Of a stretch of 64,000 nucleotides of DNA, positions 6,563 to 63,945 are shown one piece after another. The DNA lies in NCBI GenBank assembly GCA_002256025.1, contig NKIB01012868.1, positions 1 to 64,000 of the forward strand, read 5' to 3'. How positions within the stretch are numbered: the stretch's first letter is position 1; the number at the start of each line of letters is the position of its first letter. This stretch comes from Asterionella formosa. Taxonomy: Eukaryota. The notes beneath the pieces were generated by a model, which had not been told where the DNA came from, did not search any database, and saw only the letters and a list, made by a program, of their open reading frames with translations. The position numbers and the translations under genes are program-made.

Positions 6563-6704
6563 GGAGCGGGAATTAGCGGGAGATGTGTACCTGGTACCGG
6601 TACTTCAACAACTATCATTATCACGGCAGAAGCTACTTGTACATCCATATCGAATGCATAGCTAAATATCACGCCCGTGAGAAGTGCAAACAGGATGATA
6701 TTCG

Positions 6705-9384: not shown

Positions 9385-9577
9385 GTTGATGAGAAGGAGA
9401 AACAGTTGAGCTTTCTTGGGTTCTCGTTTTGTAGGCCGTCTTGTCGGCGCATTCTGACATGGTTATCGTAAAATGATTTTAGGAAAAAATCACACGAGAA
9501 AGACTACCGGTAACACCGCCGGTACAGTCATGACATTATTCTCCTGCGCGGTGATATCTCGCGTGCACCACAATTCT

Positions 9578-10080
9578 TGGTATCTGGTACCTGCAAGTTG
9601 CGGGAATTTTGCTGAAACTAAAGATTTAGCTATCTTTATCCGAGATTAAAATGTTAGTTTAAGTAAATGACCGCAACTTGCTGTTGCCAGGTACCCTGGT
9701 ACCTGGTACCCCTGGTACGAGGAACCAGAGCAAGTGCCTGTAATTAAGAAATGGACGCAACTTCTATGTACCAGTACTGTGCTATGTACTACCAGGTTGT
9801 CCTTGTGGTACTGTACCAGGTACCTGGTACTACCAGTACGACATCTCCCCTATTCTCGCGGGCTGGTACCAGGTACCAGGTAAAAATAGAATTTTGGGTA
9901 CCTGGTACCGGTACCAGGTAACAGGTGAGGACGATGGTGGGCGGCAAAGCAAAGTTGATCGGTCGCTGCCTGACGTCGTCGTGATCGACAGTATAAATAG
10001 CTACCTGGTAGTACCAGGGTACTGGTACCTGGTCCTGGCACCGAATCACAGCAACTGGTATTGGTTCTGGTACCTGGTAA
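9578..10080. repeat. TA-CC(W)GG-TA array in a divergent promoter
   Basis: Dense ggtacc/taccagg/tacctgg/taccgg units, e.g. gtaccaggtacctggtac and ggtacctggtaccggtaccagg. Confidence 0.9.
9590..9684. mobile_element. 95-bp MITE, Tc1/mariner-type, copy 1
   Basis: TA|cctgcaagttgcgggaattttgc ... aaatgaccgcaacttgctg. Inverted near-copy of 43368-43463; right TA eroded. Confidence 0.85.
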
Positions 10081-10365
10081 CGTATTGTCCACGGGATTGT
10101 ATTGCTAATGTTTTCTTATTCTTTTATGATATACTGTATATATAAAAAAGAAAGAATACATGCCCCCCAAAAAAGATACTTACTACCAGTAGCTACCCGG
10201 TAAAAATGTTGGAAAAAGCAGACTACGATCGTCAAGGTACCAGTCTTTTGATTCAAAATTCTACTTTCTTTTCGCTCTACATGTGCTGTCGAAGATCGAG
10301 CCTTTGGGTGTGTTCATTGTTCAATTAAGTAGGTGGAATTTTGATGTCAATGGTTCGAATTGGCC

Positions 10366-13859: not shown

Positions 13860-14526
13860 TTGTTTTGATTGGTCTGTCACCATGAGTTTCTTGTCAATTA
13901 TTGTGGTTCTTTCATCTGCTTGCTGTTCAGTATGTGCTGTGTAGGTACAGTGGGACGAAAACGGTATGTCTGGATTTGGACATCATCAATAGCCTTACTC
14001 AATTTAATGATGCTGTTGGGTGGATTTCGTGGTCTATCTCTGTGAGTTTCTTGTTAGTTCTTGTGGTCCTTTCATCTGTTTGTTGTTCAGTATCTACTGT
14101 TTAGGTACGGCGGGATGGAAACGGTCTGTCTGGATCTGATTTGGATGCTTGGACGTCGTCAATAGGTTTGCTCAATTTAATGATGGTGTTGGGTGGATTT
14201 CGGTCATTTAGGTCTATCTCCATGAGTTTCTTGTCAATTCTTGTGGTTCTTTCATCCGCTTGTAGTGTGTTGTATACTGTGTAGGAACGGTGCGACGGAA
14301 ACGGTCTGTTTGCATCTGAATTGGATGCGTGGACATCGTCAAAAGCCTTACTCAGTTTAATGATGCTGTTGGGCGGATTTCGGTCATTTTGGTCTGTCTC
14401 CATGAGTTTCTCGTCAATTTCTGCGGTTCTTTCATCTGCTTGTAGCGTGTTGTATACGTTGTAGAGGAAGTTGCGCTGAAATGGACTCAGTTGATGGTGC
14501 AGCTGTAAATATACATCATCCTCCAT
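13860..14526 (-). repeat. ~180-bp tandem repeat (about 3.5 units) encoding a decaying 60-aa repeat ORF
   Basis: Unit marker (c/t)(a/g)tgagtttct recurs at 13881, 14041, 14221 and 14401. ORF 14101-14526 contains two YNTLQADERT..DRNPPN..IIKLSK..RPFPS units. Confidence 0.8.
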
Positions 14527-15520: not shown

Positions 15521-15790
15521 AAACGGCAGTCAATTGGCTGAGGGGCCATAGTAATCAAATTCCCTTAAATAAACGGCAGTCGATTTTGGCAATAAAAACT
15601 AGGGGCAATAGAAAATATTGAAGGTAGTTTGGCAGCCGAAAACGGATCATTTGAAATATTCAAAATATGTTTTATAAGAAGGGCAATTCCCGGTGCCACT
15701 CGTTCGGTCAACCTACTCTCGCCTCCCAAGCCTCGAACACAAGAATACTCGCAGGCAGTCTCCACCCTCAATCATGTCTTACCTTCAGTA
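15521..15790 (-). mobile_element. Dispersed repeat, copy A (inverted partner at 52024-52363)
   Basis: 15693-15790 matches the reverse complement of 52024-52121 at about 96/98. Adjacent ~170 bp is more diverged. Shared boundary TACTGAAGG; multiple GACTGCC sub-repeats. Confidence 0.8.
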
Positions 15791-15808
15791 GGAGAATTCA
15801 CATCCAGA

Positions 15809-28448: not shown

Positions 28449-28827
28449 TTGAATCACTTATAACGCGCTTTCTGAGACCTCGTGGTTACACGTGGTTTTT
28501 CACAGCACAGCACAGCCTGCCAACAAGACCTGTGCTTCTTCCCTAGTTTAGTGTAGGTGAGTCCCTAACCATCTTTCTCGAAAGGTGATCATCTTAGCCG
28601 CAGCATTAGGGGAAACTCCGAATGCCTAGTAGGAATGTGGCACAAGTTGCTTGTAGGGGGACAACCCACTTTTCCTTGCACACCAGGCAAGACCGTGCGG
28701 GACGCCGGTAAGGAGTGTGGGAATGGAACCCAACAATTACTTCTCAAAAAATTGCGTGAATCGAACCACACAACCTCAAATGAAATGTACCCAACCAACT
28801 ATTCCATTATCCACTCCTATCATGTAT
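28449..28827 (-). mobile_element. tRNA-derived SINE, copy 1
   Basis: Homologous to 36423-36787 over its whole length; degenerate B box GGTTCGATTC on the minus strand. Confidence 0.75.
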
Positions 28828-28893
28828 AAAGGATAGTATGTTTTAAACCCCATTCGTACTCCCCTATTGTTTTCTAGGCAAATTTTTCACACA

Positions 28894-29225
28894 TGCCGAC
28901 AAGACCTGTGCTTCCCTAGTTTTGTTAGAGTAAGTGATGCCCCAGCTACCTTTCGCGACAGGTGATCATATAAGCCGCAGAGTTCTTAGGGGAAACTCCG
29001 ACCGCCTAGGAAGGCGGCACAAGCTGCTTCTAGAAGGCAACCCACTATTCTTGCACACCAGTCAAGACCGTGCAGGACGGTAAGGAGTGTGGGAGTCGAA
29101 CCCAACAATTGCATCTGAAAAAAATTGCGGGAATCGAACTTCACAACCTTAGATCAAAGGAACCTTAGATCAAAGGCAACATGCTAAACCACTACTAAAC
29201 CATTCCCTCACTCCTATCATGTATA
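28894..29225 (-). mobile_element. tRNA-derived SINE, copy 2 (3'-truncated)
   Basis: Homologous to copy 1. Two B-box motifs (GTTCGATTCC, GGTTCGACTCC) and an internal 16-nt duplication aaccttagatcaaagg. Confidence 0.75.
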
Positions 29226-31246: not shown

Positions 31247-31362
31247 TACCGGTATGACCAAGATTTATGTACATACGTGCCCGAACTTGAGTGAACACCG
31301 GTAGATGATTTATGGGAGGCAGTATACTGCTACCCTGGTACCAGGTATGTCCCTGGTACCGG
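31247..31362. repeat. TA-CC(W)GG-TA units upstream of DnaJ
   Basis: taccggta, taccctggtaccaggta, ggtaccgg. Confidence 0.7.
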
Positions 31363-31507
31363 CAATATGAAATATACATTTTCAACAGAGAATGTAATAA
31401 ATTTTTATGTAATAAGAGGACACATTATAAATAGTAGAAGTGAAGAATTGGCAACTGTATTTCTCGTCGTCCGGCGGCAAATGCTTTCGTCGTGATCTGG
31501 TCAGCAC

Positions 31508-34555: not shown

Positions 34556-35075
34556 AGTACGCCTTCGATCCCGATGAAATAGTTGATTCGTGTCCAATGC
34601 TGGAGTTTGATGACGCTGCTCTGTCAAATGGAAGGACCATCGGTTCTCAGGCCTCGTCGTCGCTTCTCTTTTTATTTGCGACCCTTCCATGGACAGAGAG
34701 CCTGTAAGGTGCATCTTATTCTCTTATAGCGTCGTCCAAATGGGGCTTCAAGGTTCCTGGGTTTAACGATGACGGAAACTCAGCTTCCCTTCTTGTATAA
34801 ATAAAGGGTACAGGTCCCTACATATTCCTAAAAAAAATTAAAAACGGAATCATTTACCGGTAGTTAACCAGTACAAAGTTCCTGCGGTACTGGTGTACAC
34901 AAAATGATGGATAAGCAAAGACAAAATCAAATGATGGCTGATGGGAATGACATGATACTGTATTATACGATACAGTACCGGTATTCTTTCGCTCTTTCAA
35001 AATGCAAACAGTACTGACAGTGTACAGACTTACCAGGAATAAGTTCTACGTAGAATATGCAGTGCACATACTGGT

Positions 35076-35849
35076 TTAAGGTTGCTGCATTTCAACCCTG
35101 GCTTAGAGGAAGGGTTAAAAACATAATATTGAGTCAGAGTACTCAAACACAGACTTCTTACAACTAGCTAAAACATAAATATATATCGCTAAAAGGAGCT
35201 TTCACCAATATACAATCTTTCCATATGATTAAATACAGTCATTGAGAAAAGTAGGGGTTTAGGTCAATGCTATATATCGTCAGGATATAGGATCTGGCGA
35301 GAAACTGCAGAAAGCAACTTCGGTTTTTTTTAACTATGCTATTAAGACAGGAAATTTCGGGGGAAATCACTTTATTTGGCATAGTAAAAAAACCGAAGTT
35401 CCTTTCTGCAGTTTCTCGCCAGAAGTTATATACTGATGCTATTTGAAGGTTACCTATGTATCTAATTCGCCTTCAGACCCAGCGAACGTTGAGCTATCAT
35501 CATCCAAAATTTCGACCGAATCGGCCTTTTCTACCGTCTCCAAAATATCGGAATCAGAACCACTTAGCGCCAAAACGTTATCATCTGAATCAGAGTCTTG
35601 TGATGCAAAATTTAGTCGTCAAATTTCTAGTACCAAAAATTCCATTGTAAGTGCGCGCAGTTTTATAGATGTACTGATTGGCTATTGCGAGATACTTACT
35701 GCCATGTGATTGTGCGAGGAATTGCAAACCCACACCGGCCACATTGGATAATGATTAAATAACAATTATATCCATTCGGCAGTATGTCAAAAGGTAATTT
35801 TCCTTCTTAAGAATCGAGAAACAAAGGCTAAGATTAAAACAACCTTTAA
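35076..35849. mobile_element. Non-autonomous element with internal long fold-back, copy 1 (possibly TTAA-flanked)
   Basis: Homologous to 41124-41834 from the shared boundary ttaaggttgctgc. Internal inverted repeat 35293-35423. Right boundary caacctttaa is tentative. Confidence 0.6.
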
Positions 35850-36422: not shown

Positions 36423-36787
36423 TTGAAACTTACTTATAACGAACTTTCTAAGATAACGGAGTTACACGTGGAATTTCATAGCACAGCCTGCCGACAAGTC
36501 CATGTGCTTCCCTACTTTTGTTAGCTTATGTGAGTCCCCAACCATCTTTCGCAAAAAGTGATTGTCTTAACTACAGGAGCGTTAGGGGAAACTCCGACAG
36601 CCTCGGAATGTGGCACAAGTTGCTGTAGGGGGGTGACCCACTATTTCTTGCACATCAGGCAAGACCGTGTGGGACGGTAGCTAAGGAGTGTGGTTGTTGA
36701 ACCCAACAATTGCTTCTCAAAAAATTGCGGGAATCGAACCACACAACCTCAGATCAAAGACAACTTGCTTAACTACTGAGCCATTCC
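36423..36787 (-). mobile_element. tRNA-derived SINE, copy 3 (best-preserved head)
   Basis: Minus strand GGAATGGCTCAGTAGTTAAGC (A box, 36783-36771) and GGTTCGATTCC (B box, 36740-36730), then a ~300-bp body shared with copies 1 and 2. Confidence 0.8.
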
Positions 36788-38396: not shown

Positions 38397-40308
38397 CTAG
38401 CAATTCCCTTTCGTGGTATTCATAACCAACCAGCTCTCAAGGGCAGTCGCGGTTCGGGGAAGGGTACTTGGGAATCCCCCGGAAAGAGCTCTTTTCCCCC
38501 CGACGCCTCCACTAGTTGGAGCACTTCTTGGCAAAAGAGTAGATGCCACACTTGCACTTACTTGCCGGGGGGAACAGCCTTCCCTCCTAAAATCAAAGGT
38601 TGCGTTTAGGTTCGTGTTTTGGGTGGTGGTCACGTTGAGACTACTCATCGCCGACGAAGTTAGTCCATTTTGAGGGACAGGATGGTTCAACAATTTTCCG
38701 TCGCGACCCCAGATCGATCCGCCTGCAACAGCACCACGGCCAAAGTCGCCAAAAGTTGCATTTTTTGGTTCGCGATTGCCTGATTCAGCGTGTGGTCGGC
38801 CGAATGATTTTGTACTTCGAAGCCGATTTTGAGACTGAGACAACCGTTTGCGTTTGGCGGCCTGAAAGCTTCCTACATCTTCTTTTGAAGGATCCACAGA
38901 GTGTTCCCATTGAACTGAACGATTTTTTCGTGTCATGGCCATACCTTCGGGCGTCTGTGCCACTGGTGAAGGTCCTGAGCCTTTTCCTTGTAATATACTG
39001 TTTAGTCGAAGTGCTGACGATAGTGCCTTTTGTAACTTTGGCGATTGAGCCGCAACATCTGGCGAGAGCTTCAGAGCACTGCTGAAGCCTGATAAGCTTG
39101 TGCTTGCAGGGGTTGGACGCAGGTCCTGTTTTGGAGGCAATGGTTTGTCGACGTTTACAGCGATTGCTCGTGTCACTACCTTGAAGACGACAAGCCGAGC
39201 TTGCTCGACCATTGAGTCGAGAAGTGCACATGTATCAAGATTTACCTCAATCTTCGTGAGCCTAGGAGAGGCACATACTTGAGACTTTGCAAAATGACCT
39301 AGAAATGATTTGAAAAGAAACACGTTAACGACACAATACTGCGACAAAAATCATGAGCCTCAATAGACAAAAAATCCATATGAGCTCACCAACAATAGTT
39401 CCCGGAGCACGGAGAGATATAATTTCGTTGCGTTGTTGCGACCTTACTTGCAATAAAACCTCGAAAATCAAGGGAAGGATCACGTCAGCTTCTTTTGGCT
39501 GTTGCCTTGCATGTTCAGGTAGCGCTAAGGTCTTAAAACTCGTGATTGACGTCTGAAGTTCGATTTTGGAGCTTAGCATGCTGAGCAGACGATTACGACT
39601 CGAAACATCTCCATAGGTTAGTGATTGACGAAGCAAAAGAAGCGTCCATGCTTTTACTCTTGATTCGACAAGTGACATGAATGATTTCGCGACACCTTTC
39701 GCCAACGCCGTGGGCGCATAAATCAAGGTTGATTTTGTCCATGAAGCTATAGAACCAAGGTTTTGCGCGGCAGATTTCTCTGGTTTTTCTGCGTTAGCAA
39801 CTACTGCAGAGCCAGCTGTGTCTAGGACAGATGCAACCATTTCGGGGACTTTACGGTTGTTGTGGTGTTCTCCAACTTTTGGAAGCGGAACATTCATGGT
39901 TATATCTTCATTTACTTTGTTCGTATTAAGGTCCAATGAAGGCAACGAACAAACGATATCACAATCGTTGACTGTTTCAGATATGCAATCGTCAAAATCT
40001 TGCGAAGTAGCACTCTTTTTCGCTCCATTGACGGCTGCGTTGCCATCATGAGGCAACGAATGCCCAGACGACATGCTACCAAGCAATCCAGCAAAGTTGG
40101 ACACTATCGCCTCCTGCAAGTTCATAACGTCGGCTGAAGTGGGATTCGTCGTCTCCCTACCGAGGGGCGAGGAAGGAAGGTTATTACAGGCACCGGTCAT
40201 CATTTCTATCAGTTTATGTGCATGTGTCAGACGAGTATAATCTCCTAATTCCCAGCCGCCGCCGCTGCTGCTTCCTTTTGCTTTTCTCCGATCGTGAAAG
40301 GACATCAT
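38397..40308 (-). CDS. Uncharacterised protein; exons 40308 (or 40203)-39390, 39298-38397
   Basis: Two long ORFs joined in frame by intron 39389-39299 (GTGAGC...TCTAG): APGTIV-G-HF. Confidence 0.75.
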
Positions 40309-41050
40309 ACCGGTACATCGGTAGAATTCCACAACGTACTGGTAGGTACGTAACGGTACATGCCCGCTACTGACGGTACCCTGGTACCCCCTGGTTGTTT
40401 GTATTCCTATCGCGGGGACATTATGTATTACTTTTGTATCACAAGGAAATACCGGTAAGTAATAATTAAAAAATGAAATTCTTCCGACTTTTCGCCAGTA
40501 CCGATTTTTCAAACTTGCTCGGTCATTAGTAAGTAACCTACGACCACCACTTAGGGTTCCAGTACCAGGTAGCTAATAGGTACCCCTCCTGTCTACCGGT
40601 AGTTCTACATCCCGCCAGGATTCGCAACATGGAACTTCCATTGAATGAATCCGTGCTGCTGCCAGTCAAGATATCTGTAGACTAAAAATGATGTCAGAAA
40701 CCAGGATATGGTAATGCGTAAATAAGTTTGTTCTTCGCAGAAAAGACGCCTGCGGACATATTCCAAACCAAAAACGCATACGATGTCTGAAACCAGACTA
40801 CCTACTGGCTTGTACTTTTACTGATATACCACATGGAACGTACGTTCTCCCTAAGTATTTATTGAAAAAGTTGGACCAAAGAATGACACCTGTCCCAAGG
40901 AGGAGCGAAATTCCTCCTATCATTGACATATACTTGTGGTTCCTGGTATTTATAGAGGCATATACTAAGACCAAGCTCGAACTATGGTGTGCAACGTTAA
41001 AAAATATACCGGTACCGGTATATCAATTCAGAGGACTACCGGTACCTGGT
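40308..41050. repeat. Clusters of TA-CC(W)GG-TA units
   Basis: Clusters at ~40308-40395, ~40558-40601 and ~41007-41050 (taccggtaccggta, taccggtacctgg). Confidence 0.7.
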
Positions 41051-41123
41051 GCTAGTCCCGTACATACGTAATGTAAGCTGCCTGTATTATTACATAGCAG
41101 GGTTTTCGATGCCGAAACCAACT

Positions 41124-41834
41124 TTAAGGTTGCTGCTTCAGAAACCCTTTCTCGAGCTAGGGTTGAAAAATAATATTAATTCAAAGTGGTACTAGTCAAA
41201 CAAACACTTTTCAAGAGTAAATGAATATGTATATCACTATACTTGGAGTTTCCACCATTGAACAGCCTCTCTATTTGCTTTCCGATAGATACAGTCATTG
41301 GTCAAAGTGTGGGCGTAGGAAAACTCTAGGACCAGGTACCGGTATATAACATCAGGATATAGGATCTGGCGAGAAAGTACTCCAGAAGGAACTGCTGATT
41401 TTTTAATATGCTGAAAAGACAAGAAATCATGCACCAGGCCAAACAACAGTATATTTGGCATTATAATAAAACCGATTCTCTGTTCTGCAAATTCTCTCCA
41501 GAAGTTAACTTCTGACACTATTTAAAGGTTACCTATGTATGTAATTTGCCTTCAAGCCCAACCAATGTTGAGGAGCAATCATTGCCCAAAAAAACCGACA
41601 ACATCAGCCTTTTGAATGGTCTCCAAAATATTGGAATCAGAATCACTACCAGTATGTGCTGAAACATCCTCATTGGAATTTGAGGACATTCTAGTTGTAA
41701 AATCTCCTGTATTTATGCCTACGCACCAATTAACAATCTAAATAGTTCAAACAGAGTCATTGCTTGTGTTGTTGTTATATTCTTCAAAATCACTCCTGCG
41801 AATTTCCAATTCCAATAAAACTCAGCAACCCTAA
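41124..41834. mobile_element. Fold-back-containing element, copy 2 (more decayed)
   Basis: Shares ttaaggttgctgc, caggatataggatctggcgagaaa, aaggttacctatgta and ctccaaaatat.ggaatcagaa with copy 1. Right end cagcaacc|ctaa is the inverse of the left end. Confidence 0.6.
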
Positions 41835-42074
41835 GCATTTTTTTTAAATAAAAGTAAAAATTGTCAATCAAATCTTATAGCATGTTAAAGCTATCCAATA
41901 ATTGCACTTGTGCCCAAATAAATGGACACAATTTGTACCAGTTTTATTTGTCCATATGGTACAACAGGACCTGTCTCGTCATCTACTATAAAAACCTGCT
42001 ACTGCTGTCATTTCATTCAGAAGGGTATACAATTAACCTGGATATAGAATGAATTATAAGCATACTCCTTTTAT

Positions 42075-42923
42075 TTATGAAAACCAAGATTCATCTTGAT
42101 TTTGTTGTCTGACATTGACAGCCACATAATTCTGGCCTGTTTGAATAATTCTCAATTCTTCGTCCAAATACAAAATAGAACATTTACCAAAGTACGTTTG
42201 TATAGGTCCTTTAAGATCAATAGGATATCTTTGAAACCATTCCATCACAATTCCATTGTCTTGAATGGCATTCCGAAATTCGCTATTTGGCAGCAGGGTC
42301 CCATTAGTACTATCTGCATATAGTTTGACCCCCACCAAGGATAGAGTCAATTGCAATGGTTGTTCTGGTGTGGATGTGGCTTTTGTAACCACTTGTTGCA
42401 AAATTCGACTATTGTTCGACCCCGAGAAGGGAAAAGAAGATGCCCAATCTGGACGAATCCACTCAATAACATTGGCAATAAATGGCGGAGTCGTACAATC
42501 TTGGCCAATGCGCCCTACTTTGGAAGTAAGTGATCCACCCAAACTGGTTATGTCTGGAGCATCTGTGTACACCAATGTCCATTTCCCAGAGATTGTACTA
42601 GTTTTCGTTGCTTTGGTTCCTGTTGTCGTAGTTGTATAATAAGGCGACGCTGGTTCCGTCGTTGGATTGTATTTTTTCAATTCTTTGATGATTTGATTGG
42701 CATTTCTCTGATCCAACGATGATGCCGTAAACCCACGGTTGGTACTGGTTCCAAGATTCAGAAGTTTTGTTTTGAGATGAGTCACTCGTTGTTGTTGCTG
42801 TGCTTGAGACGAGAGTCGAAGAATGTTATTACCCTGGTTGGGAACAACAGCGACAAATGCAGCATTCGTGAAGCCAATCAATAGCACTAAAGACGTAGCG
42901 ACTGAAGTAATGCTATATTGCAT
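42075..42923 (-). CDS. Plastid lipid-associated PAP/fibrillin family protein
   Basis: Signal peptide ending NAA-F; TNRGF, ISGKWTLVYT, ILYLDEELRI. Confidence 0.88.
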   Translation of the reverse strand: MQYSITSVATSLVLLIGFTNAAFVAVVPNQGNNILRLSSQAQQQQRVTHLKTKLLNLGTSTNRGFTASSLDQRNANQIIKELKKYNPTTEPASPYYTTTTTGTKATKTSTISGKWTLVYTDAPDITSLGGSLTSKVGRIGQDCTTPPFIANVIEWIRPDWASSFPFSGSNNSRILQQVVTKATSTPEQPLQLTLSLVGVKLYADSTNGTLLPNSEFRNAIQDNGIVMEWFQRYPIDLKGPIQTYFGKCSILYLDEELRIIQTGQNYVAVNVRQQNQDESWFS

Positions 42924-43219
42924 GTTTGTTGTTCGCCTCCCTTTTCGTTCTTCTTGTGCTCGAGCAACAGTTCACTTGACCGCAAAGAGAATGGCTAGTA
43001 CCAGTACACCATTTGAGTAGATGCGAGTGGGGGGTAGGTGATATTTATCACGTTCTTTGTTTTATAATAGGTAGATACATACATTCACGAACATAATACA
43101 TCAATCGCTGTACGAGCAGATATTCCGGTATGGATATCGGTACACGCGACGTTGGTTCAATGTTTGTGCTATATTTAACGGTATAAAAAGATAGATATCA
43201 TTTGTAAAATCTTCTACTA

Positions 43220-43740
43220 CTACATACCGGTATATGTAGGATTGTATTCCGGTAAAAAGCCTGGAATGTTTTCGCGAGAGAGAGTACCTGGTACTGTGTG
43301 CACTGCTGTTTCAGGAACGGTACCTGGTACCTGTAACCAGGTACCAGGTTTATCATGGTACAAGGTACCAGCAAGTTGCGGTAATTTTGCTTGAACTAAC
43401 ATTTTAATCTGGGATAAAGATAGCTAAATCTTTAGTTTCAGCAAAATTACCGGAACTTGCAGGTACCTGGTACCTGGAACCTGCTACCACGTACAGAACT
43501 GGTACCAAGTACCAGGTACTCCGTACCAGCAGGTACCCTGGGGTACCATGTTATCATGCACCATAACGGGGAGACCATGGCGGGGAGTACCGGTACGCAC
43601 ATGGTGTATCGTATGATATACTCCAGTATTGCTTACGACATGTACCGGTATTGTACTCGAGAACTACCAGGGTGGTCAGTAATGTAGCAATATATGATCA
43701 TCGCCATGGACGTTCTATCTACTACCGGTACGCATGTGAA
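43220..43740. repeat. Large TA-CC(W)GG-TA array in a divergent promoter
   Basis: Many ggtacc, taccgg, taccagg and tacctgg units surrounding the MITE at 43368. Confidence 0.9.
43368..43463. mobile_element. 96-bp MITE, Tc1/mariner-type, copy 2 (intact, TA on both sides)
   Basis: TA|ccagcaagttgcggtaattttgct ... agcaaaattaccggaacttgcagg|TA; ~24-bp TIRs. Confidence 0.9.
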
Positions 43741-43782
43741 CCGGTTTATTAAGAAGTGCATGCGAATCCACTTGGCAACAGA

Positions 43783-45631
43783 ATGATGGTCGAGGGACTT
43801 CCAAATCGGAGAAGACGAGCGGGAGGGCCTCAAGAGACGGATTTATCTGTCTTGCCTTACTTCGACGATTCTGCCGATGAACTCGACGACAAGGATCGAC
43901 GATCTCACTATGATCGTATGTTCGGCGATGCATGTGCCATGGGGCAGCTCATCCTAAATCCTTGTCTCTTCTTTCACCTATGTGTTCAAAAACTGTTCCG
44001 AAATCAAACTTTTCGAGATTTTATGCGATCACGAGCGACACGGACGCTTTTTTCTGTCGTGGCGGTGGTGCTGATGCTCTTCGTGACTGGCGAGGAATAC
44101 AATTCCTTTCGAGTACATCCATTACGACCTACAAACGATTGGGAAGTCAATCATTTACCGATACAGATATCCTACTTTGACTTCTCATCGGTGGATGACA
44201 TTGGTGGGTGGACTTATCCACGGCGAGATCAGGTATTTCCTTCCTTTGCACGCATGCACAAACTAATGTTGAAGGAAAGAATCGCCGATTTTGGAGGCCT
44301 TATCATCCATCCGAGGCGAGAATCCTCGCGCTTCGAGATACAGATTGATCCGCGAGATGATATTAAATACGAAGCGGAACGAATGCAGCAAATAGAAGAT
44401 ATGAACTCCTTTGATATGAAACCTCTTTATTGGCACGATGACGAACTCGATCATGTTGTGTGTCATCGACCAAATTGGAGAAGCTTGTACTTTCCGAATT
44501 GCAACAACTTTCACGAAACAGATTTGTCGAGAGACTTCGAAGCCGGTTTCGAGTCCAAGATTGAACAGAATTATGACTCATATAGGTTCAACAATGGTTT
44601 CTATCGTGAGGCTTGGTTGGTCAATGACGTGGAAAGATCAGAAGCTATAGTACTCAAGACTCTTCGAGGAGTCCATGACTTTACAGCGCGGGTGATGCTC
44701 ATGGTTCAACGAGATGCTATTATTATGGAGCGACTGACATCATCACCACGAATAATCAACATGTATGGCCATTGTGGAACCTCCATTACTGTCGAACCGA
44801 TCTCCTACGAACTTGAGCTTTACGTTGTTCCAAACGGGTACAAGAAGAAAGGAGAATTGGGTGACCAATACGAAGTTAAACCTCAAAACGATTTTCAACC
44901 TATTGAAAAGCTAGAAATGGCACTGGACATGGCCGAATCGCTTGCCGTTTTACATGGATACGAAGGCGGTGTCATCGTTCATGATGATGTTCAACTTTGC
45001 CAGTGGCTCAGAACCAAACGAGGGACACTAGTATTAGGTGACTTCAATCGAGCTGAGATTATGAACTGGGACCATGAGAAGGAGGCGTATTGTAGATATA
45101 GCAATGGCTTATCGTATGGGAACGTAAGTGCATACTGCTTTCCAATCTCGTCACACCGAAGGCTAAACTCACTCAACTTTTCGTTTACCATCTGACCTAT
45201 AAAACCAATTGCCGAAGTGGAGATCCCCTGAGGAATTCAAAGGCAAAGAGCTCAACGAAAAGATCGACATTTTTAGTTTAGGGAACAATCTATATGGCCT
45301 TTTGACTGGATTGTGGGTGTATTACGAAAATGAGGATGACACTGTTGTTCAGAAAGCTGTTGTCGCTGGCAGTCGGGCTTTCATCGACGAACGATACCGG
45401 ACCAGATCATATGCTGAGCGAAAATTAGTGGAAGCCATCGAAAAATGCTGGGAATACGACCCTGATAAGCGAATCAATATCTTTGCCTTGATAAAATTCT
45501 TACGAGGCGCTCTTGACTACGTCAAAGTACGAAATGAAAGCGACATGGGAAATGCTCATTATCCAAATCAAGGAGGTGACGGTGATCACCGTGATCAGCC
45601 GCGGGAGGGTTTGGAGCTATCTAAAGACTAG
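43783..45631 (+). CDS. Type II membrane atypical protein kinase (PKDCC/VLK-like); exons 43783-45123, 45218-45631
   Basis: TM near the N-terminus; FPNCNNFHE, NGFYREAW, VLK, HDDVQLCQW, LGDFN. Intron 45124-45217 gives YGN/WRSPEE; KIDIFSLG. Confidence 0.82.
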
Positions 45632-45712
45632 ATTTTAAAAGCAGAACAGGGTACGAAAATCTTCTAGACCAAGGATATAAATCTGACACAATTGAATTAG
45701 TCTGCCGTAGAT

Positions 45713-46318
45713 TTAGGAATGTTTGGCGAGCAACTTGGGGAGATCATCATTGACGAACCAGGATGGTGTTGACCTGTCCCAATGATCAACCAAATCCAGA
45801 ACATCGAGTTTTGATGCAAAAGCATTTCTCGCCACTTCTATTGACTTGATTTCTTGAGCCACTGTCACCTCGAGAGGCTCCAACCACTGATCCCCAAAAT
45901 CCCTGCCAAAGGCCTTAATTACTGGAACCCTTGTGGTGTCACCTCTGAGGCACTGACCAAGGCCTTCGTTGGAAAGCAGCAAGAGAACAGAATCGTTCTT
46001 GTCTGTCGCTAAACTTGCAGCAATCCTGAGGGCGGTTGGGCCTGGTTTATTATCGGAAAGCTTCTCTGGCGCCGTGTACCATCCAACAATATCTTCGTTC
46101 GTGGATGCAGCAGCCAACGCCAGCGCCATCTCAACCAAAGGCCTTGTTGGCGTTTCATGGCATACCGGTATCGCCTTTGTGACGGCAACCTTTTCACTGG
46201 AGAAACTCCCAATCAAGATCCCATGCACGACCGTTGTTCCATTGTTAGCAGCGTGCAGCAGCATGGCCACGAAGGCTTCGGAGGAAAGCAATGTTGGAAG
46301 CTTCTTGTCGGGTGCCAT
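45713..46318 (-). CDS. EMC8/9: ER membrane complex subunit 8/9 (UPF0172, MPN-like)
   Basis: MLLHAA, VHGILIG, AIPVCH, IVGWY, LVDHWD. Likely start MAPDKK at 46318. Confidence 0.82.
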   Translation of the reverse strand: MAPDKKLPTLLSSEAFVAMLLHAANNGTTVVHGILIGSFSSEKVAVTKAIPVCHETPTRPLVEMALALAAASTNEDIVGWYTAPEKLSDNKPGPTALRIAASLATDKNDSVLLLLSNEGLGQCLRGDTTRVPVIKAFGRDFGDQWLEPLEVTVAQEIKSIEVARNAFASKLDVLDLVDHWDRSTPSWFVNDDLPKLLAKHS

Positions 46319-46789
46319 TTTCGCTGTTTTATCTTTGTCTTTCCGGATGACTATAGGGTACCAGACTGCTACTTTAAACAATATCCTCGTTTCCTTAGTT
46401 AGGGATGGGAGTGGAAATGAGAGAAATAAGCTTTTGAGTAACACCTTGTTCGGGCGAGCAAGTGTTGCCAGCACAACGATTGTCAAGATTTTGAAAGTAG
46501 AGCAGCCCATCCATATTAGGTCAGTCGAACTAATCAATCTTGAATAATATTCAACCCAGAATCCCGTATTGAAATGCTGCGAGAATTTGAACAGCATTTG
46601 ATTCCCAAGAACTTCCGTATATACGCAAACCAAGGTAAATATTTGAATGGATAATGTTCCATGTAAGCAATATTTCATTTAAGGAAAGGTATGTATGCAG
46701 TGCAGATAGCATTGAAAATCTACTGAAAAAGGCTGTAGTGTTGCTTATTTTAAGTAATATAGTTATGGAATAAAACTTTAAAGACAAAA

Positions 46790-48070
46790 AATAACAATGG
46801 CAAACTTCCATTTGGTGCAATATCGAATATTTTTTGCATCTAAGGCAGCTACTAGACTGACTTGGCTAACAAAACCTATGGGCCAGCACCATTTGCAGAA
46901 GCTAAATCAGATGGGAAAGGCAACTAATTCACTAGTGCAATTACCTGCTACTATGACACTAAATGATTCACAGTTGTTGATCTGATGTGCATCAAAAATT
47001 AAGATAAATCCTTTGCTTGTACTATGCATCAGCCACTACAAAACAAAAAGCTGTTTCTGAATGAGGTTGGGTTCCATTGAACTACAACTTGTTCTTGCTC
47101 CATCCGGAAATTCAGCTGACAAGTACCTCGAATCTGCTAACAGAAGCAAATAAAAAGCAACCCGCCTCTTCCATTCCCCCACCCAGACTAAACTTGAGCC
47201 AAGGCATGACTGGAACCCTTGTTGATCAGATCATACAGTCGTATCGAAATTGTTAGGATGCTTGAGATTGAATAAATCTGAACCAAGAGCTTGCCCGCCA
47301 AAAAAAAGAAACAGCACTAAGGGTGGCTGATTGCAAGCAATAAACGATACACAGCCGGTCATCATGTTGCTGTAGGCAGGTACTTGTTGGTTCCTGAAGT
47401 GGTCAATGACCTGTTGAAAAGGAAGAGGCGGACATGCAAAAGAATTGCAGAGTGAGCAAGAGAATCAGAAAATAGAAGAGAGGAGGGGTGAAATTTGAAA
47501 CTGCTGAATTAAATCTCACCACTGGATTTTCTGGAACACTTGTGGATCAAGGTTTAGAATTTCGAAACAGAGAAGATGCAAGAAATGGCGTGGATATGGA
47601 TGCACAGGCTTGTCAACAGAAGGAAACTACTCATGCACACGACATTGATGCACACAGGAAACGACTGTCTGCCGAACTCCTTGTAACTTCTAGAAATCAT
47701 GCCTTTGGTCCTGTTCTACTTGCAAGGGAACTGGGAAGGAAAAGAAAGGCGGACAAAAGACAGAGTGAAAAATAAATAAAACGGCTACCAAGAATATGTT
47801 GCAGCCACTTCGCACCAAATTTATGGTGGTATGCGCAGAACGAAAGCCAGAGTATTTGCTTTCAGTAGCTGATCTAAAGGTACTGGTACAATGGTTCAGG
47901 CGCAATGGCGATGCATCAGCGCCACAAACAAGACAAACAGTACTTACTAGGTTGTACACAACATCGCACCTTCATGGTAAACAACAGGCCCCAACAGTGG
48001 ATGTCCTCAAAGTGGTGCAACAGAACAGAACAAAGATGCAAACAAGAAGTGGTATTACATACACATGAAT
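46790..48070 (+). pseudogene. Decayed pogo-like (Tc1/mariner superfamily) transposase C-terminal fragments, partly duplicated
   Basis: Broken frames reading KSFA..KKAVSE*GWVPLNYNL..HPEI, LNLSQGMTGTLVDQ / LNLTTGFSGTLVDQ and VQWFRRNGD..P.T. Resemblance is recalled, not searched. Confidence 0.45.
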
Positions 48071-48612
48071 GTAGTGTGACAAACAACAACTGGTGATTTT
48101 CAAGAGGCTGTCCGGCAGTAGTAATTGTAAGTAAATATTACTTAAACCATCACCAAGATAAGTAACTAAAGTCGTATTTGACCTGAAACCAAATATTAAT
48201 AGTAGAGTATCATCGAAAATGACCATTACTATGGGAATAAAACATCAAAAGGGATCATAAATAAATGGTAGTAATCAGTAATGGACTAACCATATTGTTG
48301 CATCAAAAAGTTTTTGTGGCAACAATAGGGTAATCGGAAAAATGGAAGATTAAAACTCCATAAAACCAATATACTGAGAGTCATCCTTATGAGGCAGAAC
48401 GATGACATTAGAAATGTTCATATCTCAAGAAATGTTGACTTCACGCAAGCTCTGATCAGACCTAGTGGTACCGGAGAGGACGAGCTACAATAACCTTCGT
48501 ACTTGCTTCAACATTACCATGCAATCGGACTAAAATAATGCATGTCGTAACATCAGGTAAAATAAGGATGACTCTCAGTTTTCAGGTGGGACCCTGGTTC
48601 CTGTTTCCCTGG

Positions 48613-48676
48613 CAAGCAAGTTGCGGTCATTTTGCAAAGTTTTAGTTTCAGCACAATGATCACTCCAACTTGCTGG
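48613..48676. mobile_element. MITE copy 3 (internally deleted)
   Basis: gcaagttgcggtcattttgc...tttagtttcagca...caacttgctgg|TA. Confidence 0.75.
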
Positions 48677-48850
48677 TACCTGGTACTTTGAGCAATTCGT
48701 GATACCATGTACCAGGGTACCAGTACATTGGTACCTGGTACCACCTGGTACTTGGGACCAGGGTACGGAGTACCAGGCACGGGTATGTAGCAGCATTTAT
48801 TACACATTAGCTACATACCGGCATGTACCGGAATGCAAGTACTGGTATGT
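48677..48850. repeat. TA-CC(W)GG-TA array upstream of EF-1alpha
   Basis: tacctggta, taccagggtaccagta, ggtacctggtaccacctggta, taccgg. Confidence 0.85.
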
Positions 48851-49034
48851 ATGTAGCACGAAAATGATGGGTTACGTAGGCCAGACGGAGAAAAGTAGCA
48901 TGTAGACAATATACCAAAAGCTACGCTTGGATCTTAGCAGCCGCAAATGAAAATGTGCCCGCCGGTGCCTTCCTCTCGACAGCCATGCAGAGTCCGAATA
49001 AATATATATATAAGTAAAAGCAAACAAAGCCACA

Positions 49035-50757
49035 ATGGGAAAGGAAAAGGTTCATATTTCCTTGGTCGTTATCGGCCACGTCGATGCCGGTATGTGATAA
49101 TTAACATTGTCTTGCAAACTTTGTGGAGGAGTGATTAGATAATCGAAGAGGACCATGAGGGGAAAGGTGCTGGCCTGCAGTCGATGTCTGGTATTAAATC
49201 TACGTAGACGAGGATTGCATGACCATCCAGACGACGTTGCTTCTACTAAGCGCTCAATGGAGCAGCCAACAGGACTACGAAGCGCCCTATGGATCAAACT
49301 CATTCACTACCAATGCTCTCGGTTGCTTGGTCAGAATATCTTGTCGTCATCCCTATCTTGCCGTCATCCCTATAGTCAACGCGCTCGTTGGCACTACATG
49401 CGTTCAGTCCACGCTCAGAATCCATTTCACCAATTGTCGTCGTCAATCGTAACGTTCCAACCGTGTCTCACCCAGTTTTAATCACAAATCAGGAAAATCT
49501 ACCACCACTGGTCACTTGATTTACAAGTGCGGAGGTATCGATAAGCGTACCATCGAGAAGTTCGAGAAGGAAGCCGCAGAACTCGGAAAGTCATCATTCA
49601 AGTATGCCTGGGTTCTTGATAACCTCAAGGCCGAGCGCGAACGTGGTATCACCATCGATATTGCTCTCTGGAAGTTCGAGTCCCCCAAGTACTCCTTCAC
49701 TGTTATTGATGCACCCGGACACCGTGATTTCATCAAGAACATGATTACCGGAACTTCACAGGCTGATGTTGCTGTCCTTGTCATTGACTCCTCCCAGGGA
49801 GGTTTCGAGGCTGGTATTTCCAAAGATGGACAGACCCGTGAGCACGCCCTTCTTGCTTACACCCTTGGAGTCAAGCAGATGATTGTCGCCCTTAACAAGA
49901 TGGACGATAAGACGGTCAAGTACGAGCAGGCCCGTTACGAGGAAATCAAGGCTGAAGTTGGATCCTACCTCAAGAAGGTTGGCTACAAGCCGATGAAGAT
50001 CCCGTTCGTCCCTATCTCTGGATGGGAGGGTGACAACATGATTGAAAAGTCCACCAATATGCCTTGGTACAAGGGACCTTACCTGCTTGAGGCCCTTGAC
50101 ACCTGCACTCCTCCTAAGCGTCCTACCGAGAAGCCACTTCGTCTTCCTCTTCAGGATGTTTACAAGATCGGTGGTATCGGAACTGTACCTGTCGGACGTG
50201 TTGAGACTGGTGTTATCAAGCCTGGTATCCATGCCATGTTCGCCCCTACTGGACTCGTAGCTGAAATTAAATCCGTCGAAATGCACCACGAATCCCTCCC
50301 TGAGGCCGTCCCTGGTGACAATGTTGGTTTCAACGTGAAGAACGTTGCCGTCAAGGATCTTCGACGTGGATTCGTCGCTTCCGACTCCAAGGCCTCCCCT
50401 GCCTCTGGAGTCTCCTCGTTCGAGGCGCAGGTCATTGTCATGAACCACCCAGGACAAATCTCCAACGGATACTCCCCTGTCCTCGATTGCCACACCGCCC
50501 ATGTTGCTTGCAAGTTTGCACTTATTAAGGAAAAGATGGACCGTCGTTCCGGAAAGGTCTTGGAAGAGAATCCCAAGTTCGTCAAGACTGGAGACGCCTG
50601 CATTGTCGATCTCGAGCCCACCAAGCCCCTTTGTGTGGAATCCTTCACTGACTTCCCTCCCCTCGGACGATTTGCCGTCCGTGACATGCGTCAAACTGTT
50701 GCTGTCGGAGTCATCAAGGGAATCACCAAGGACGAAGGAAAGGGCAAGAAGAAGTAG
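49035..50757 (+). CDS. EEF1A: Translation elongation factor 1-alpha; exons 49035-49089, 49493-50757
   Basis: [55 protein letters not shown]. Intron 49090-49492 (GTATGT...ATCAG). Strong codon bias. Confidence 0.99.
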
Positions 50758-50889: not shown

Positions 50890-51720
50890 TTAGTAGTCAG
50901 CCGTATTATTGATATCACTCTCCCAACAATCTGTTTCGATAGCGCCTTCAGCTGCTTCCAGCTGAATCTGTTTTGCTTGTTTTCGCTTCTCTGCATGACA
51001 TGCCTGCATCGCATCGGGAATCCTGCCCTTTTCGAGCTTGACCACATCAAATTTATGTCCCTCAAACATCCGCTCGCTGTATTTGGCCCACGCTGCGAAA
51101 TGACAAAGTGTGATGGATAGGCATGATTGTGCGTCCAGTAGAATCGCAGACGATGCTGAACTACCATCCACTGGATCACAAAGTATGCTTACATGTGGTA
51201 CATGGACAAAATCATCGCATACGTTCGCCAGATGAAGTGGTAGTCCTCTGGGTAGCTTGCTCAGCACGATGCAAGTATTGCCACCTTTTTGAAATGGCCT
51301 TGAATTGACGGGTAATGATTTGGCTGTAAATAAAGCATCCTTTTTGCTGTTGTCGAGACACACTTGAGCCAATCCAGTAATCGGGTCTGCTATTACACTG
51401 TAACCGGTCAGTGAAAAGGCGTCGGCGACTCCAACCAACATCCCTACTAGGCGATGGCATCCACATCCACCTTCTTCCACAGCTGTTCGCAGGTATAGAT
51501 TCGCTTGTTCAACTGTTGGAAATGCGATAATTGGAACATGTTTCGATGCCCCATGTGATCCCTCAGTAGAACATTTGTCAAATCCAACAGCAACAACTTG
51601 AGTCACAGCAAAAGCTGCTGCACATCGAAGAATCGGGCCCAGATTGTTACTCTTTTTTGAGTTTTCCAAAAGAAGAAATATTCGGGGAGTAGTTAATTCG
51701 TAACCCGAGACATCCGCCAT
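50890..51720 (-). CDS. SpoU/TrmH-family SPOUT RNA methyltransferase-like protein
   Basis: LLLENSKKSNNLGPILRCAAAF, GSHGA, GLP...CDDFVHVP. Confidence 0.8.
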   Translation of the reverse strand: MADVSGYELTTPRIFLLLENSKKSNNLGPILRCAAAFAVTQVVAVGFDKCSTEGSHGASKHVPIIAFPTVEQANLYLRTAVEEGGCGCHRLVGMLVGVADAFSLTGYSVIADPITGLAQVCLDNSKKDALFTAKSLPVNSRPFQKGGNTCIVLSKLPRGLPLHLANVCDDFVHVPHVSILCDPVDGSSASSAILLDAQSCLSITLCHFAAWAKYSERMFEGHKFDVVKLEKGRIPDAMQACHAEKRKQAKQIQLEAAEGAIETDCWESDINNTADY

Positions 51721-52023
51721 TGTTGCACATAAATAGCAAATTGGTCAACTGGAACCTTTCTCGTAGATTTACACTTGAGGAAATCGACAGTTCAAGGAAA
51801 GCACGAATGTCACGGATCACAGGAAACTTATCATAGGCTTCGTAGAGCGATTTTGTTATCCTCAAGATGTCCGGAATACTACAGTCTGTATCTTGGTATC
51901 GTTATCGTCAAGGTACCTGGTAGAGAGAATTCGGCGGCGGCGAAAGGTTTCTTGTTCTGAAGCCACATAGAACCATGAGGATCATGATCATTCTTTGATA
52001 TGCGTTCATACACGGAACATTCA

Positions 52024-52363
52024 TACTGAAGGTAAGACATGATTGAGGGTGGAGACTGCCTGCGAGTATTCTTGTGTTCGAGGCTTGGGAGGCGCGAGTA
52101 GGTTGACCGAACGAGTGGCGCCCATTTGCCCATCATATAAAACATATATTGGATATTTCATATGTAGAGTTTTTGGATTCCTCAATCCTGCATTTGCCCA
52201 TCATATAAAACATATTTTGTATATTTCATATGCTCCGTTTTTCGACTGCCAAACTACCTTCAATATTTTCAATAGCCCCTAGATTTTATTGCCGAAATCG
52301 ACTGCATTTTATTTAAGGGAATTTGATTACTGATATCTATAGCCCCTCAATTGACTGCCGTTT
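52024..52363 (+). mobile_element. Dispersed repeat, copy B (inverted relative to 15521-15790)
   Basis: See copy A. Contains an internal direct duplication of catttgcccatcatataaaacatat. Confidence 0.8.
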
Positions 52364-53340
52364 ACTTAAGGAAAATCGACTGCCGAAATCGGACGAGAGT
52401 ACGAGGAGCTACATGAAGGCACGAAATGATGGTTTTCTTTCAAGTGTTGACGGCAATTCCACTATTTACATCCCTGCTATCTTCCAGCATGCTCCGATGT
52501 ATACAAAAGCTGGTCATTGATGTCTCAAGTACTGACTCCTCATCAAATGGATCTGGCTGGTTGTTGGATAATTCGATTTCTTATGGGATTCATATCGTTG
52601 CATTGTGCTTGCTTCGTCACAGTGGCGCCAAAATTTCGGTTCCCCTTTCTGTTGATTTCCGATAGCCTTTCCGGTCAACTCCTTCGCTAGATTTTATATG
52701 TAGTGATAAATAAATTAACGATTGTTCAAAAGTGACATCAATCAGTTGTTGAGTGTCAAAACTCAAAGCGTTATGGTAGGTCAAAGTTAGGCTTCCATCT
52801 CGCCATGGCACCGGTATTTTCGTCAGATATGATCAGCCGTTAAATTTTAAACATAATTTTGTAGTATGTTTTCTACGTGTCCTACACTATCTCAAATCAA
52901 ATCTCGGCAGCAAGTTTTAGTGCTCACATGTTGGCTTTTTTCCGCTGCCCTACTACAATAACATTGTTTCATTGCTTTCTAATCACAATATTACTTTTGT
53001 TACTTCTGCATAATCTTCTACAATGACAAAACGAAAAGTCGTCAATCTCAATGAGCTATCGCAAACTCCGCAAAGCAGCCGGAACATGATGGAGCTGGTG
53101 TTCTGCATTAACTCGTATTCAACAAGGAAGAGAGGACAGGTATGTGCTTGTTAATAGTTGTTGTTGTATTCGATTTGCTGCCATGGTCGAGTATACTAAT
53201 TATGAATTTTGATGAAGGCTATTGTCATGTTACTCCTCCACTTCCTGACGATGCAAGAAATCAGTATCCACTGGTCAAACCAGCTTGTCCAATGAGTTGA
53301 AATATGTGGCCAGTTGATTGTTGTTTTCACAAGATATAGT

Positions 53341-53433
53341 GTCCCATATTGCCCCTAAATAAAAAAATTACTTAAAGAAACCAAAAATTACTTAGACACC
53401 CACAGTTCTCATCGAAAAGCAAGACGATAGCTA
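53341..53433. mobile_element. Right end of the TIR family seen at 5719-6562
   Basis: cccatattgcccctaaataaaaa..ttacttaaag..aaaaattacttaga...gcaagacgatagct shared with 6481-6562. Confidence 0.7.
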
Positions 53434-53529
53434 GGGTGGGGATTGCCAGTAAGTATCAGACAAACGATCTCAACTTATTCATACACACATTCTAAATCCA
53501 GGTAGCTAGGGTGGTATCTGGTACTACTT

Positions 53530-55487: not shown

Positions 55488-55614
55488 AGTACCAGGTACA
55501 CATGTCGAACCCTGCTGAGGGCCTGACGTCAGCACTTAGACTTTATGCATGTCCTCAAGTCGCCAGGCAGGAGCATCGCTCGCACCATTCACCAGGTACC
55601 GGTACCTGGTACCA
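55488..55614. repeat. TA-CC(W)GG-TA units upstream of RPL23
   Basis: taccaggta; accaggtaccggtacctggtacc. Confidence 0.8.
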
Positions 55615-55997
55615 TCCTTCGTTGGGGCGGCAAATGCGCAGCGCAATCTTATCATCTGTCGACCCATGCGACCAACTCATCGAAAATCAGACTCTTACCT
55701 CTTACTGAAATCAATTCCACCTCGCTTGATGCTCCCAAATTATCGTCATAGAGACTTAAGGTGTGTCAATGGTGCTCGTTGACTTGCAATTGCCGGTGCC
55801 TGTAACCTATTCGCGATGCATTATAAGATAGGACGTGAAAATATACTCTCGTGATTTAGAAACATGCGAACCGAACTGTAACTGCTATCGCGGACGAGCT
55901 ATTGAGCTGATTCGAAATGGGTGTTGATTAGGCGGCATTGACTTTTTAGCTCACTCGTTTTATACCCTTCTGCTTTATAGTCTGGAAAAAACTAAAT

Positions 55998-63472: not shown

Positions 63473-63945
63473 ATGGTACTGTACCGGCACCAGGTACCCG
63501 TACCCTGATATCAGTACCTGGTACCTGGTATGTACAACTACTATATTGTGGGGATGACGGTACATATGTGTGTAATTACATGTAAACATTCGTCCGCATT
63601 CTTCTATTTTTATTACTTGCCTGGTGCTCTACCTGGTATGGTAGTGTTAGTCCGTACGACACATGAGTTCAGACTTGAAACCGTCCATTCCGGACCTCCC
63701 GCCAGCTGTTGACCCTGCTGTCGACAACGCACGAATGCATACTTCTGTTATTCCTGTGTGTGTTCCATCGATGAATGACATTTCATATATACCGTGGCTA
63801 ATCTGTATGGTTAGTACCTGGTACGTTGTAAATCAGAAGTAGAAGACAACGACACAAAAACTAGAAAAGATATACCGTTTTTCATCCGGACTCATTGAAC
63901 ATACCGGTAATTGAAATACAAGAGTGTGTACCGGTACCGGTAGTC
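63473..63945. repeat. TA-CC(W)GG-TA clusters upstream of the cyclase gene
   Basis: tacctggtacctggta, taccggtaccggta and similar units. Confidence 0.8.

Follow-up and report, generated by a model that had tools for sequence, protein, structure and literature searches.

GGTACC-rich arrays upstream of diatom genes as possible excision scars of a TA-targeting hairpin element

Introduction

Stowaway elements in intron 4 of the Triticeae beta-amylase gene leave scars of one to four letters of their terminal inverted repeats (TIRs) inside TA duplications, and that report also describes how a later element entered at the TA of an older footprint, with repeated insertion and excision at one TA (PMC1925063). 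Here we describe DNA in which scars of a similar kind may have accumulated. The stretch analyzed, called the window below, comprises 64,000 nt of contig NKIB01012868.1 from the diatom Asterionella formosa. It carries many short arrays of GGTACC-rich units, among which those at 43220-43740 are the focus of this report, and a hairpin-forming MITE (miniature inverted-repeat transposable element) of about 100 nt. We put at roughly one half the probability that the units are excision scars of a TA-targeting cut-and-paste family whose visible member is this MITE, with ends of the form CCWG...CWGG.

The two systems are alike in having a short, hairpin-forming, nonautonomous element with TIRs beside TA, and end-letter scars inside a TA duplication. 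They differ in that the units described here are over-represented by hundreds-fold, are concentrated within about 800 nt upstream of genes, are stacked with shared TAs, and number about 20 per element. They also differ in that a TA duplication is present on both sides of only two of six MITE copies, and no transposase was seen in the window. Stowaway elements have already been reported to insert and excise repeatedly at one TA, and arrays on this scale would add a new variation on that theme. The literature we searched held no description of scars stacked in promoter-proximal arrays, nor of this motif in diatoms.

Among the Tc1/mariner transposons, Sleeping Beauty and mariner are described in one report as generating footprints from three-nucleotide 3' overhangs (PMC7827188). 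The likeness lies in stereotyped short end-letter scars that sit between two TAs and are closed by end joining. The difference is that two letters per side remain in the window's commonest unit and four plus two in another class, while a three-plus-three product was not found. Natural excisions of rice DNA transposons, according to a third report, are mostly untidy; only 8 of 94 left just the duplicated target, and fillers averaged 13 bp (PMC4423477). The likeness to the present case is that excision acts there as a source of mutation, adding filler DNA close to genes.

A quite different comparison is with promoter elements that are palindromes. The Drosophila DRE is an 8-bp palindrome of housekeeping promoters, and the units described here likewise include an 8-bp palindrome, often in multiple copies, near the starts of many unrelated genes. 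Unlike the DRE, these units overlap by two letters, insert inside repeats, carry the end letters of a co-located transposon, and have no known binding factor.

Results

The hexamer most over-represented in the window is GGTACC, with 52 copies against 11.5 expected from base composition. The sequence TACCGGTA, a perfect 8-bp palindrome, occurs 28 times, compared with a mean of 0.25 and a maximum of 2 in 100 dinucleotide-preserving shuffles, and TACCWGGTA occurs 27 times, compared with 0.20 in the shuffles (largest 1). With strands pooled, the GGTACC motif family accounts for seven of the window's eight commonest 8-mers. A control was available from metagenome contigs scanned for the MITE end pattern, which gave at least 121 loci: GGTACC is absent from 102 of the 121 loci listed, and only three diatom-like loci have 3-10 copies.

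A sequence-only reading of this DNA had parsed the arrays as TA, a short filler, and TA. When all intervals between consecutive TAs were counted and compared with 60 second-order Markov simulations, the fillers found in excess were exactly those it had named. These are CCGG (28 observed, 0.4 expected), CCTGG (18, 0.27), CCAGG (9, 0.4), CTGG (10, 0.97), CCAG (7, 0.8), CCAGGG (3, 0.0), and CCCTGG (3, 0.02). Units were also present at all 12 of the further places where it had listed arrays. The commonest one-letter variants of TACCGGTA are TACTGGTA (10 copies) and TACCAGTA (7), together 17 against 28 intact copies. Both are the transitions expected at the central CG, a pattern that may point to methylation of the units or to their neutral decay.

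The internal structure of the units is informative. Adjoining units always have a TA in common (GGTATACC occurs 0 times, GGTACC 52 times), an arrangement that successive TA duplications would give. Of 28 TACC-N-GGTA units, 27 have A or T at N (P 8.7e-6 at 59% A+T), and in TACC-NN-GGTA, NN is AG or CT in six of six. These spacer letters match positions three and four of the MITE's CCAG end, and the longer filler CCAGCAGG equals four letters from each end of the adjacent MITE joined together. Judged from sequence, the filler spectrum and the spacer letters have the appearance that two target duplications enclosing a few element end letters would produce. The proposal that fillers arose by joining MITE ends is supported by the spacers and the four-plus-four filler, and is not supported by the class CCTGGG/CCCAGG, the four-plus-two product due from CCTG-type ends, of which there are none (0 versus 6).

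The canonical units form 49 chains, of which 38 are single units and 11 contain two or more. Single arrays mix units of 6, 7, and 8 nt in both orientations, as in CCTGG-CCGG-CCAGG at 9899. Among neighboring five-letter units, the A/T orientation was the same in two pairs and different in one, with three strict pairs only. Identical units make up 4 of the 12 adjacent canonical pairs, compared with an expected fraction of 0.32 for independent draws. Since identical neighbors are no commoner than chance, replication slippage does not appear to be the builder of the arrays. The sequence-only reading had named array variation between alleles only by slippage-like gain of identical neighbors as an observation that would count against it; within the window, identical neighbors show no excess.

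Outside the chains' terminal TAs, 52 of 98 bases are G (background, 26%), and GG is found in 22 of 98 against 7.6%. This bias, together with the GG-TA-CC setting of the MITE ends, suggests a target preference for G-TA-C. Such a preference matters for the idea, put forward in the same reading, that arrays grow because each cycle adds a TA target. By itself this idea is insufficient to explain stacking: The non-ORF DNA of the window (the DNA outside long open reading frames, or ORFs) already holds 2016 TAs, and with TA so common a preference for the G-TA-C context is needed in addition to one new TA per cycle. The preference need not be strong. The observed adjacency of units is about 0.2 (12 adjacent pairs, 61 units, 49 chains), compared with about 0.055 units per TA in the zone 100-600 nt upstream of start codons, so that only about a fourfold local preference is needed.

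The MITE is present in three copies in the window (Table 1). Its ends read CCWGCAAGTTGCGG, its inverted arms span 50 nt and are 84% complementary, and the elements (96-102 nt) have the small size, the TIRs, and the lack of an ORF that characterize MITEs. As single-stranded DNA, copy 1 folds into a hairpin of -27.6 kcal/mol (z = -9.3). Copies 1 and 2 are 90% alike over 94 nt; copy 2 has six extra letters at one end (...CTTGCTG TTGCCAGG) and is bounded TA-CCTG...CCAGG-TA. The three MITEs had all been described as bounded TA-CCAG...CAGG-TA. This is accurate for copy 1, but copy 2 departs from it by its CCTG end and its extra letters, and copy 3 has TA on the right only. No match at the Rfam gathering score was found in 42900-43900. 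Matches below threshold to plant microRNA precursor families (37-45 bits, with gathering scores of 83-110) were observed over the hairpin at 43359-43472.

Three further copies of the MITE, here called L007, L042, and L090 and found on contigs of 1.0-1.7 kb each, were identified among the 121 metagenome loci listed; the remaining 118 are chance matches to the end pattern. Outside the MITE and the arrays, these three contigs showed no orthology to the window. The three copies in 64 kb and the three more among the listed loci, together with the contig depth described below, mark the family as high-copy. TA lies beside at least one end in five of the six copies: at both ends of copies 1 and 2, and at one end of copy 3, L007, and L090. 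It is present at neither end of L042. All seven TA-flanked ends have a GG-TA or TA-CC context. An 8-bp (hAT-like) or a 4-bp GTAC target duplication was also considered and fits no better than TA, with GTAC on both sides in one of six copies and G outside only 53% of terminal TAs.

Public-run data were drawn from four runs of four studies (X2, X5, X6, and X7), all consisting of unitig-like contigs that break at the MITE. In each run the depth of the MITE bin is 150-500 times that of neighboring bins, a ratio that is not a copy number. Loose contig ends fall over copy 1 at 43366, 43371, and 43460, and many contigs share only the stretch between 43366/43371 and 43460. Because contigs pile up in this way, the MITE family is taken to be abundant, with a shared core that ends at or next to TA. 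Sixteen X6 contigs agree in sequence from the TA at 43366 onward and differ before it.

Two cases reveal the derived state of units, a small sample. One is in a copy at 41123-41760 (r41) of a repeat whose paralog is r35. A 16-nt insertion at 41327-41342 in r41 reads TA-GGACCAGG-TA-CCGG and is followed by the resident TA. Neither r35 nor a consensus of 22 other genomic copies has it (X5, with the loose end before 41343 and an agreement of 0.68). Of six private insertions in r41 relative to r35, four carry pieces of the motif, compared with none of two private insertions in r35 and none of four in three other repeat families. The other case is the MITE of L090, where a 19-nt nested array, CCAG-TA-CCTGG-TA-CCGG-TA, occupies an internal TA; four other full-length copies have a plain TA there. 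These comparisons show units being born as insertions at ordinary TAs, in DNA unlikely to be under promoter selection. An origin of units by duplication-free insertion into the center of TACC^GGTA was rejected, as both nested arrays arose at a plain TA.

The L090 insertion has an inverted 14-mer in common with an array about 75 nt away. The best 14-mer match of the r41 insertion is 14 kb away, in another array, which indicates that such matches are uninformative and follow from the low complexity of the arrays. L090 has a second private insertion at 341-353, beside another internal TA, which reads TA-CTGGTTGG-TA.

The repeat family of r35 and r41 is unnamed. Its two copies in the window, at 35075-35700 and 41123-41760, are about 70-78% alike. 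Both are found 350-1200 nt upstream of a minus-strand gene and contain a 57-nt internal inverted repeat (35274-35330 and 35386-35442, 88%), and bins over the second copy reach 30-80 times single-copy depth in the public runs.

The distribution of units follows gene starts, which in this analysis are ORF-based approximations and not transcript-derived. Motif density is about 12-fold higher outside long ORFs than inside them (GGTACC, 1.68 versus 0.14 per kb; TACCWGGTA, 0.93 versus 0.03 per kb). Eight tail-to-tail gaps, 2503 nt in total, contain one motif hit, compared with 25 hits in the head-to-head gap at 9463-10581 (1119 nt) and 17 in that at 42972-43752. Canonical units lie at most 800 nt upstream of the nearest start codon in 52 of 61 cases, and about 12 of 16 gene-start gaps carry units. 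Per TA, units number 0.027-0.062 within 800 nt upstream of start codons and 0.004-0.006 at 800-2000 nt. With regard to such figures, the label "promoter" that had been attached to the arrays is a fair one.

Allelic comparisons were limited to the contig pieces listed for the four runs, none of which bridges a MITE. No series of empty TA, element, and footprint, such as the sequence-only reading had proposed to look for, was seen among them. X2 contigs, from another study's population, align over 41936-43387 and 43432-46550 without gaps and with 10 substitutions (about 0.2%), which means that both arrays beside the MITE at 43.4 kb are equal in length there. The array indels in the 12 rows listed, of 60, are confined to one letter each, at 48722 and 48727. 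In the divergent run X6, no listed piece covers 42960-43717. A joint of 43342 to 43501 in one X5 contig was considered as a MITE-less allele and set aside, as its shorter side of 24 letters is too short to call. Other listed joints connect MITE copies to one another or to other arrays.

Table 1. Positions of MITE copies, arrays, and unit clusters in the window
Feature	Position	Strand	Description
MITE copy 1	43368-43463	+	96 nt, ends CCAGCAAGTTGCGG... and ...CCGGAACTTGCAGG; TA at 43366-67 and 43464-65; GG-TA-CC context on both sides
MITE copy 2	9590-9691	-	102 nt, inverted relative to copy 1; TA at 9588-89 and 9692-93
MITE copy 3	48608-48676	+	Internally deleted, 69 nt; TA on right only (48677-78), left flank TC
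Left part of focal region	43220-43365		Single units TACCGGTA (43225) and TACCTGGTA (43285); array 43319-43349 reaching the MITE
Period-7 array	43319-43371		Tandem Repeats Finder, 69% matches
Right array	43464-43550		CCTGG units, degenerate units (GGAACC, GCTACC), filler CCAGCAGG (43524-43535), CCCTGGGG
Isolated units	43588-43740		TACCGGTA three times (43588, 43643, 43723), upstream of the kinase ORF starting near 43756
Densest unit cluster	9500-10240		Surrounds MITE copy 2; CCCTGG-CCTGG-CCCCTGG at 9692, CCTGG-CCGG-CCAGG at 9899
Array	4963-5045		GGTACC spaced by fillers both short (CCAGGG, CCTGG) and long (11-17 nt, each CC...GG)
Array abutting MITE copy 3	48675-48800		CCTGG, CCAGGG, CCAG, CCTGG, CCACCTGG
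Unit and array	55490-55615		Unit at 55490; at 55590-55613, array CCAGG-TA-CCGG-TA-CCTGG-TA, which lies some 350 nt upstream of the ribosomal protein L14/L23 ORF
Arrays and double units	63473-63945		CCTGG-CCTGG (63515), CCGG-CCGG (63929); upstream of a minus-strand ORF ending 63266/63323
Scattered units	40308-41050		TACCGGTA at 40308, 40450, 40594, 41007, 41013, and 41037, with GGTACC pairs; upstream of minus-strand ORF 39325-40572
Units	31247-31365		140-250 nt upstream of the DnaJ ORF; TACCGGTA at 31247, CCCTGG-CCAGG at 31331

Two of these places allow a further comparison with surrounding DNA. Seventeen X2 contigs have the array at 55590-55613 in common and diverge after 55614, and the repeat-rich 3.9 kb farther upstream of the DnaJ ORF contains one unit only (29625).

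The window as a whole is nuclear DNA from a photosynthetic eukaryote; it is compact, and its long ORFs have few introns. Among them are a CoA transferase, an EXS protein, a PHD/DDT giant, a fibrillin, kinases, eEF1A, and the ribosomal protein L14/L23. The kinase ORF beside the focal region (43756-45195) shares 45-53% identity with its best named relatives, which are from pennate diatoms. At least 16 studies have runs containing DNA nearly identical to 40001-49500, and these are mostly freshwater or lake metagenomes.

Several other repeats were observed. The stretch at 51700-53446 belongs to a high-copy repeat of about 1.7 kb, with 200-500 times the neighboring depth and a shared sequence with an abrupt end at 53446; neither a long ORF nor a Pfam family turned up in this repeat. 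It also occurs at 15521-15793 (inverted) and at 6482-6574, where an end fragment lies 10 nt from the array at 6587. A tandem unit of 180 nt (13870-14464; 2.8-3.3 copies, about 80% alike) occupies a head-to-head gap without GGTACC-type units. Three copies of a repeat of about 300 nt (about 79% alike) lie in AT-rich intergenic DNA at 28456-29164 and 36432-36759, and their private indels are ordinary short duplications. Finally, 46425-47592 reaches 50-150 times the neighboring depth in four runs and takes in part of the minus-strand ORF 45713-46678 (UPF0172/JAB-like), on its 5' side, along with the region upstream of it.

Discussion

If the units are excision scars, they could form as follows. 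An element would land on a TA in open DNA just upstream of a gene, preferring G before and C after, and the TA would be duplicated. On excision, the break would be closed with two to four end letters remaining per side, to give TA-CCGG-TA, TA-CCWGG-TA, or TA-CCAGGG-TA. Each scar would then offer TAs in a ...GG-TA or TA-CC... setting, with two neighboring scars making a full GGTACC. Later insertions and excisions would fall beside earlier scars, and units that share a TA would stack. Point mutation would erode units to forms such as TACTGGTA and TACCAGTA. We infer excision as the source of the insertions, and likewise the target preference, the repair route, and any effect on transcription. A more ambitious version, in which scars recreate their own target, pile up at promoters as a self-reinforcing satellite written by a transposase, become the commonest noncoding words, and are then co-opted as promoter or chromatin-opening elements, strikes us as doubtful.

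A number of observations weigh against an origin by excision. The presumed source is poorly represented: No transposase domain was found in the 50 window ORFs tested, and no longer element with MITE ends exists in the 64-kb window, where the end pattern is confined to the three MITEs, so that the autonomous element whose existence the sequence-only reading had proposed to check did not emerge. MITE copies are outnumbered by units about 20 to 1 in the window, only copies 1 and 2 among the six have TA on both ends, and the L042 MITE lies outside any array, with GGTACC pairs 320 nt away. The units themselves also fit imperfectly. No CC...GG filler of at most 12 nt lies on either side of 13 of the 52 GGTACC sites, some array fillers are 11-17 nt long, the expected CCTGGG/CCCAGG class is missing, and CCATGG, the three-plus-three product, was not seen among the fillers of the window. 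Scars this stereotyped, with one small filler set dominating, would be unusual by comparison with rice (PMC4423477). Nor do the populations offer direct help, with the allelic series not seen among the listed contig pieces, both arrays beside copy 1 equal in length in X2, and the listed array indels of single letters only. The placement of units close to promoters would suit a cis-element equally well.

This last point leads to the possibility that the units are a selected palindromic promoter element (TACC-0/1/2-GGTA, often with G...C outside) bound by a dimeric factor, and that the MITE targets this motif or shares its end letters by chance. We consider this explanation less likely than excision, yet a serious competitor, and it accounts for several findings. 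Proximity to start codons (52 of 61 units) and presence in most gene-start gaps (about 12 of 16) are expected of a promoter element, as are the perfect palindrome of TACCGGTA, the predominance of single units (38 of 49 chains), and a flanking G/C preference that extends the palindrome. All seven TA-flanked MITE ends lie in GG-TA-CC contexts, as if the motif were the target, and the arrays are length-stable between two populations. In contrast, selection on a binding site gives no account of units inserted at a plain TA inside the MITE and another repeat, of overlap by exactly TA, of a two-letter spacer limited to AG/CT, or of decayed variants as common as 17 to 28 intact copies. Moreover, no binding factor is known, and the literature on the motif or on diatom promoter palindromes held nothing relevant. 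More improbable still is that the insertions stem from break repair, by snap-back or templated synthesis of the polymerase-theta type at breaks in open promoter DNA, copying nearby arrays several units per event, or that they are scars of another TA-targeting family. Nested insertions do hold two or three units together, the L090 insertion shares its inverted 14-mer with an array about 75 nt off, and filler DNA is common at rice excision sites (58 of 94; PMC4423477). However, the best match for r41 lies 14 kb off in another array, the letters beside each TA are those of the MITE ends, and the MITE itself sits at three of about 13 array sites.

Two further explanations have very little probability in our estimation. 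The arrays could be a 7-bp microsatellite, (GGTACCW)n, grown by slippage, and Tandem Repeats Finder does report period-7 arrays of 2.4-7.1 copies at ten places, with four identical adjacent pairs among the canonical units. This explanation is disfavored by the chance-level frequency of identical neighbors, the preponderance of single units, the mixing of unit lengths and orientations within arrays, and the lack of any length difference between populations at 43.3-43.55 kb (X2). Similarly remote is the notion that the arrays are subterminal repeats of a longer array-MITE-array element whose parts move together. Similarity among the 43.4-kb copy, the 9.6-kb copy, and L007 runs 40-50 nt past the MITE into the arrays, and 43319-43513 is 72% self-complementary, but alignments of this kind are expected from low-complexity arrays. 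Furthermore, most arrays and 38 single units lack a nearby MITE, L042 has a MITE without an adjoining array, and many genomic copies diverge at 43366/43371 and 43460.

Implications

Were the units instead a promoter motif, they would represent an abundant and unreported general promoter element of a diatom, and the MITE would be an element that homes to it. If the units are scars of excision, one small transposon family would have written a large share of the short-repeat content in the promoters of this diatom, and the arrays would preserve, gene start by gene start, a legible history of past insertions and excisions. They would offer a case from nature in which a transposon's scar restores its own target, as well as ready-made markers of transposon activity in natural freshwater populations, given that the DNA is present in runs of at least 16 studies. 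It would also become testable how much of the regulatory DNA of compact protists comes from transposon traffic and how much from point mutation.

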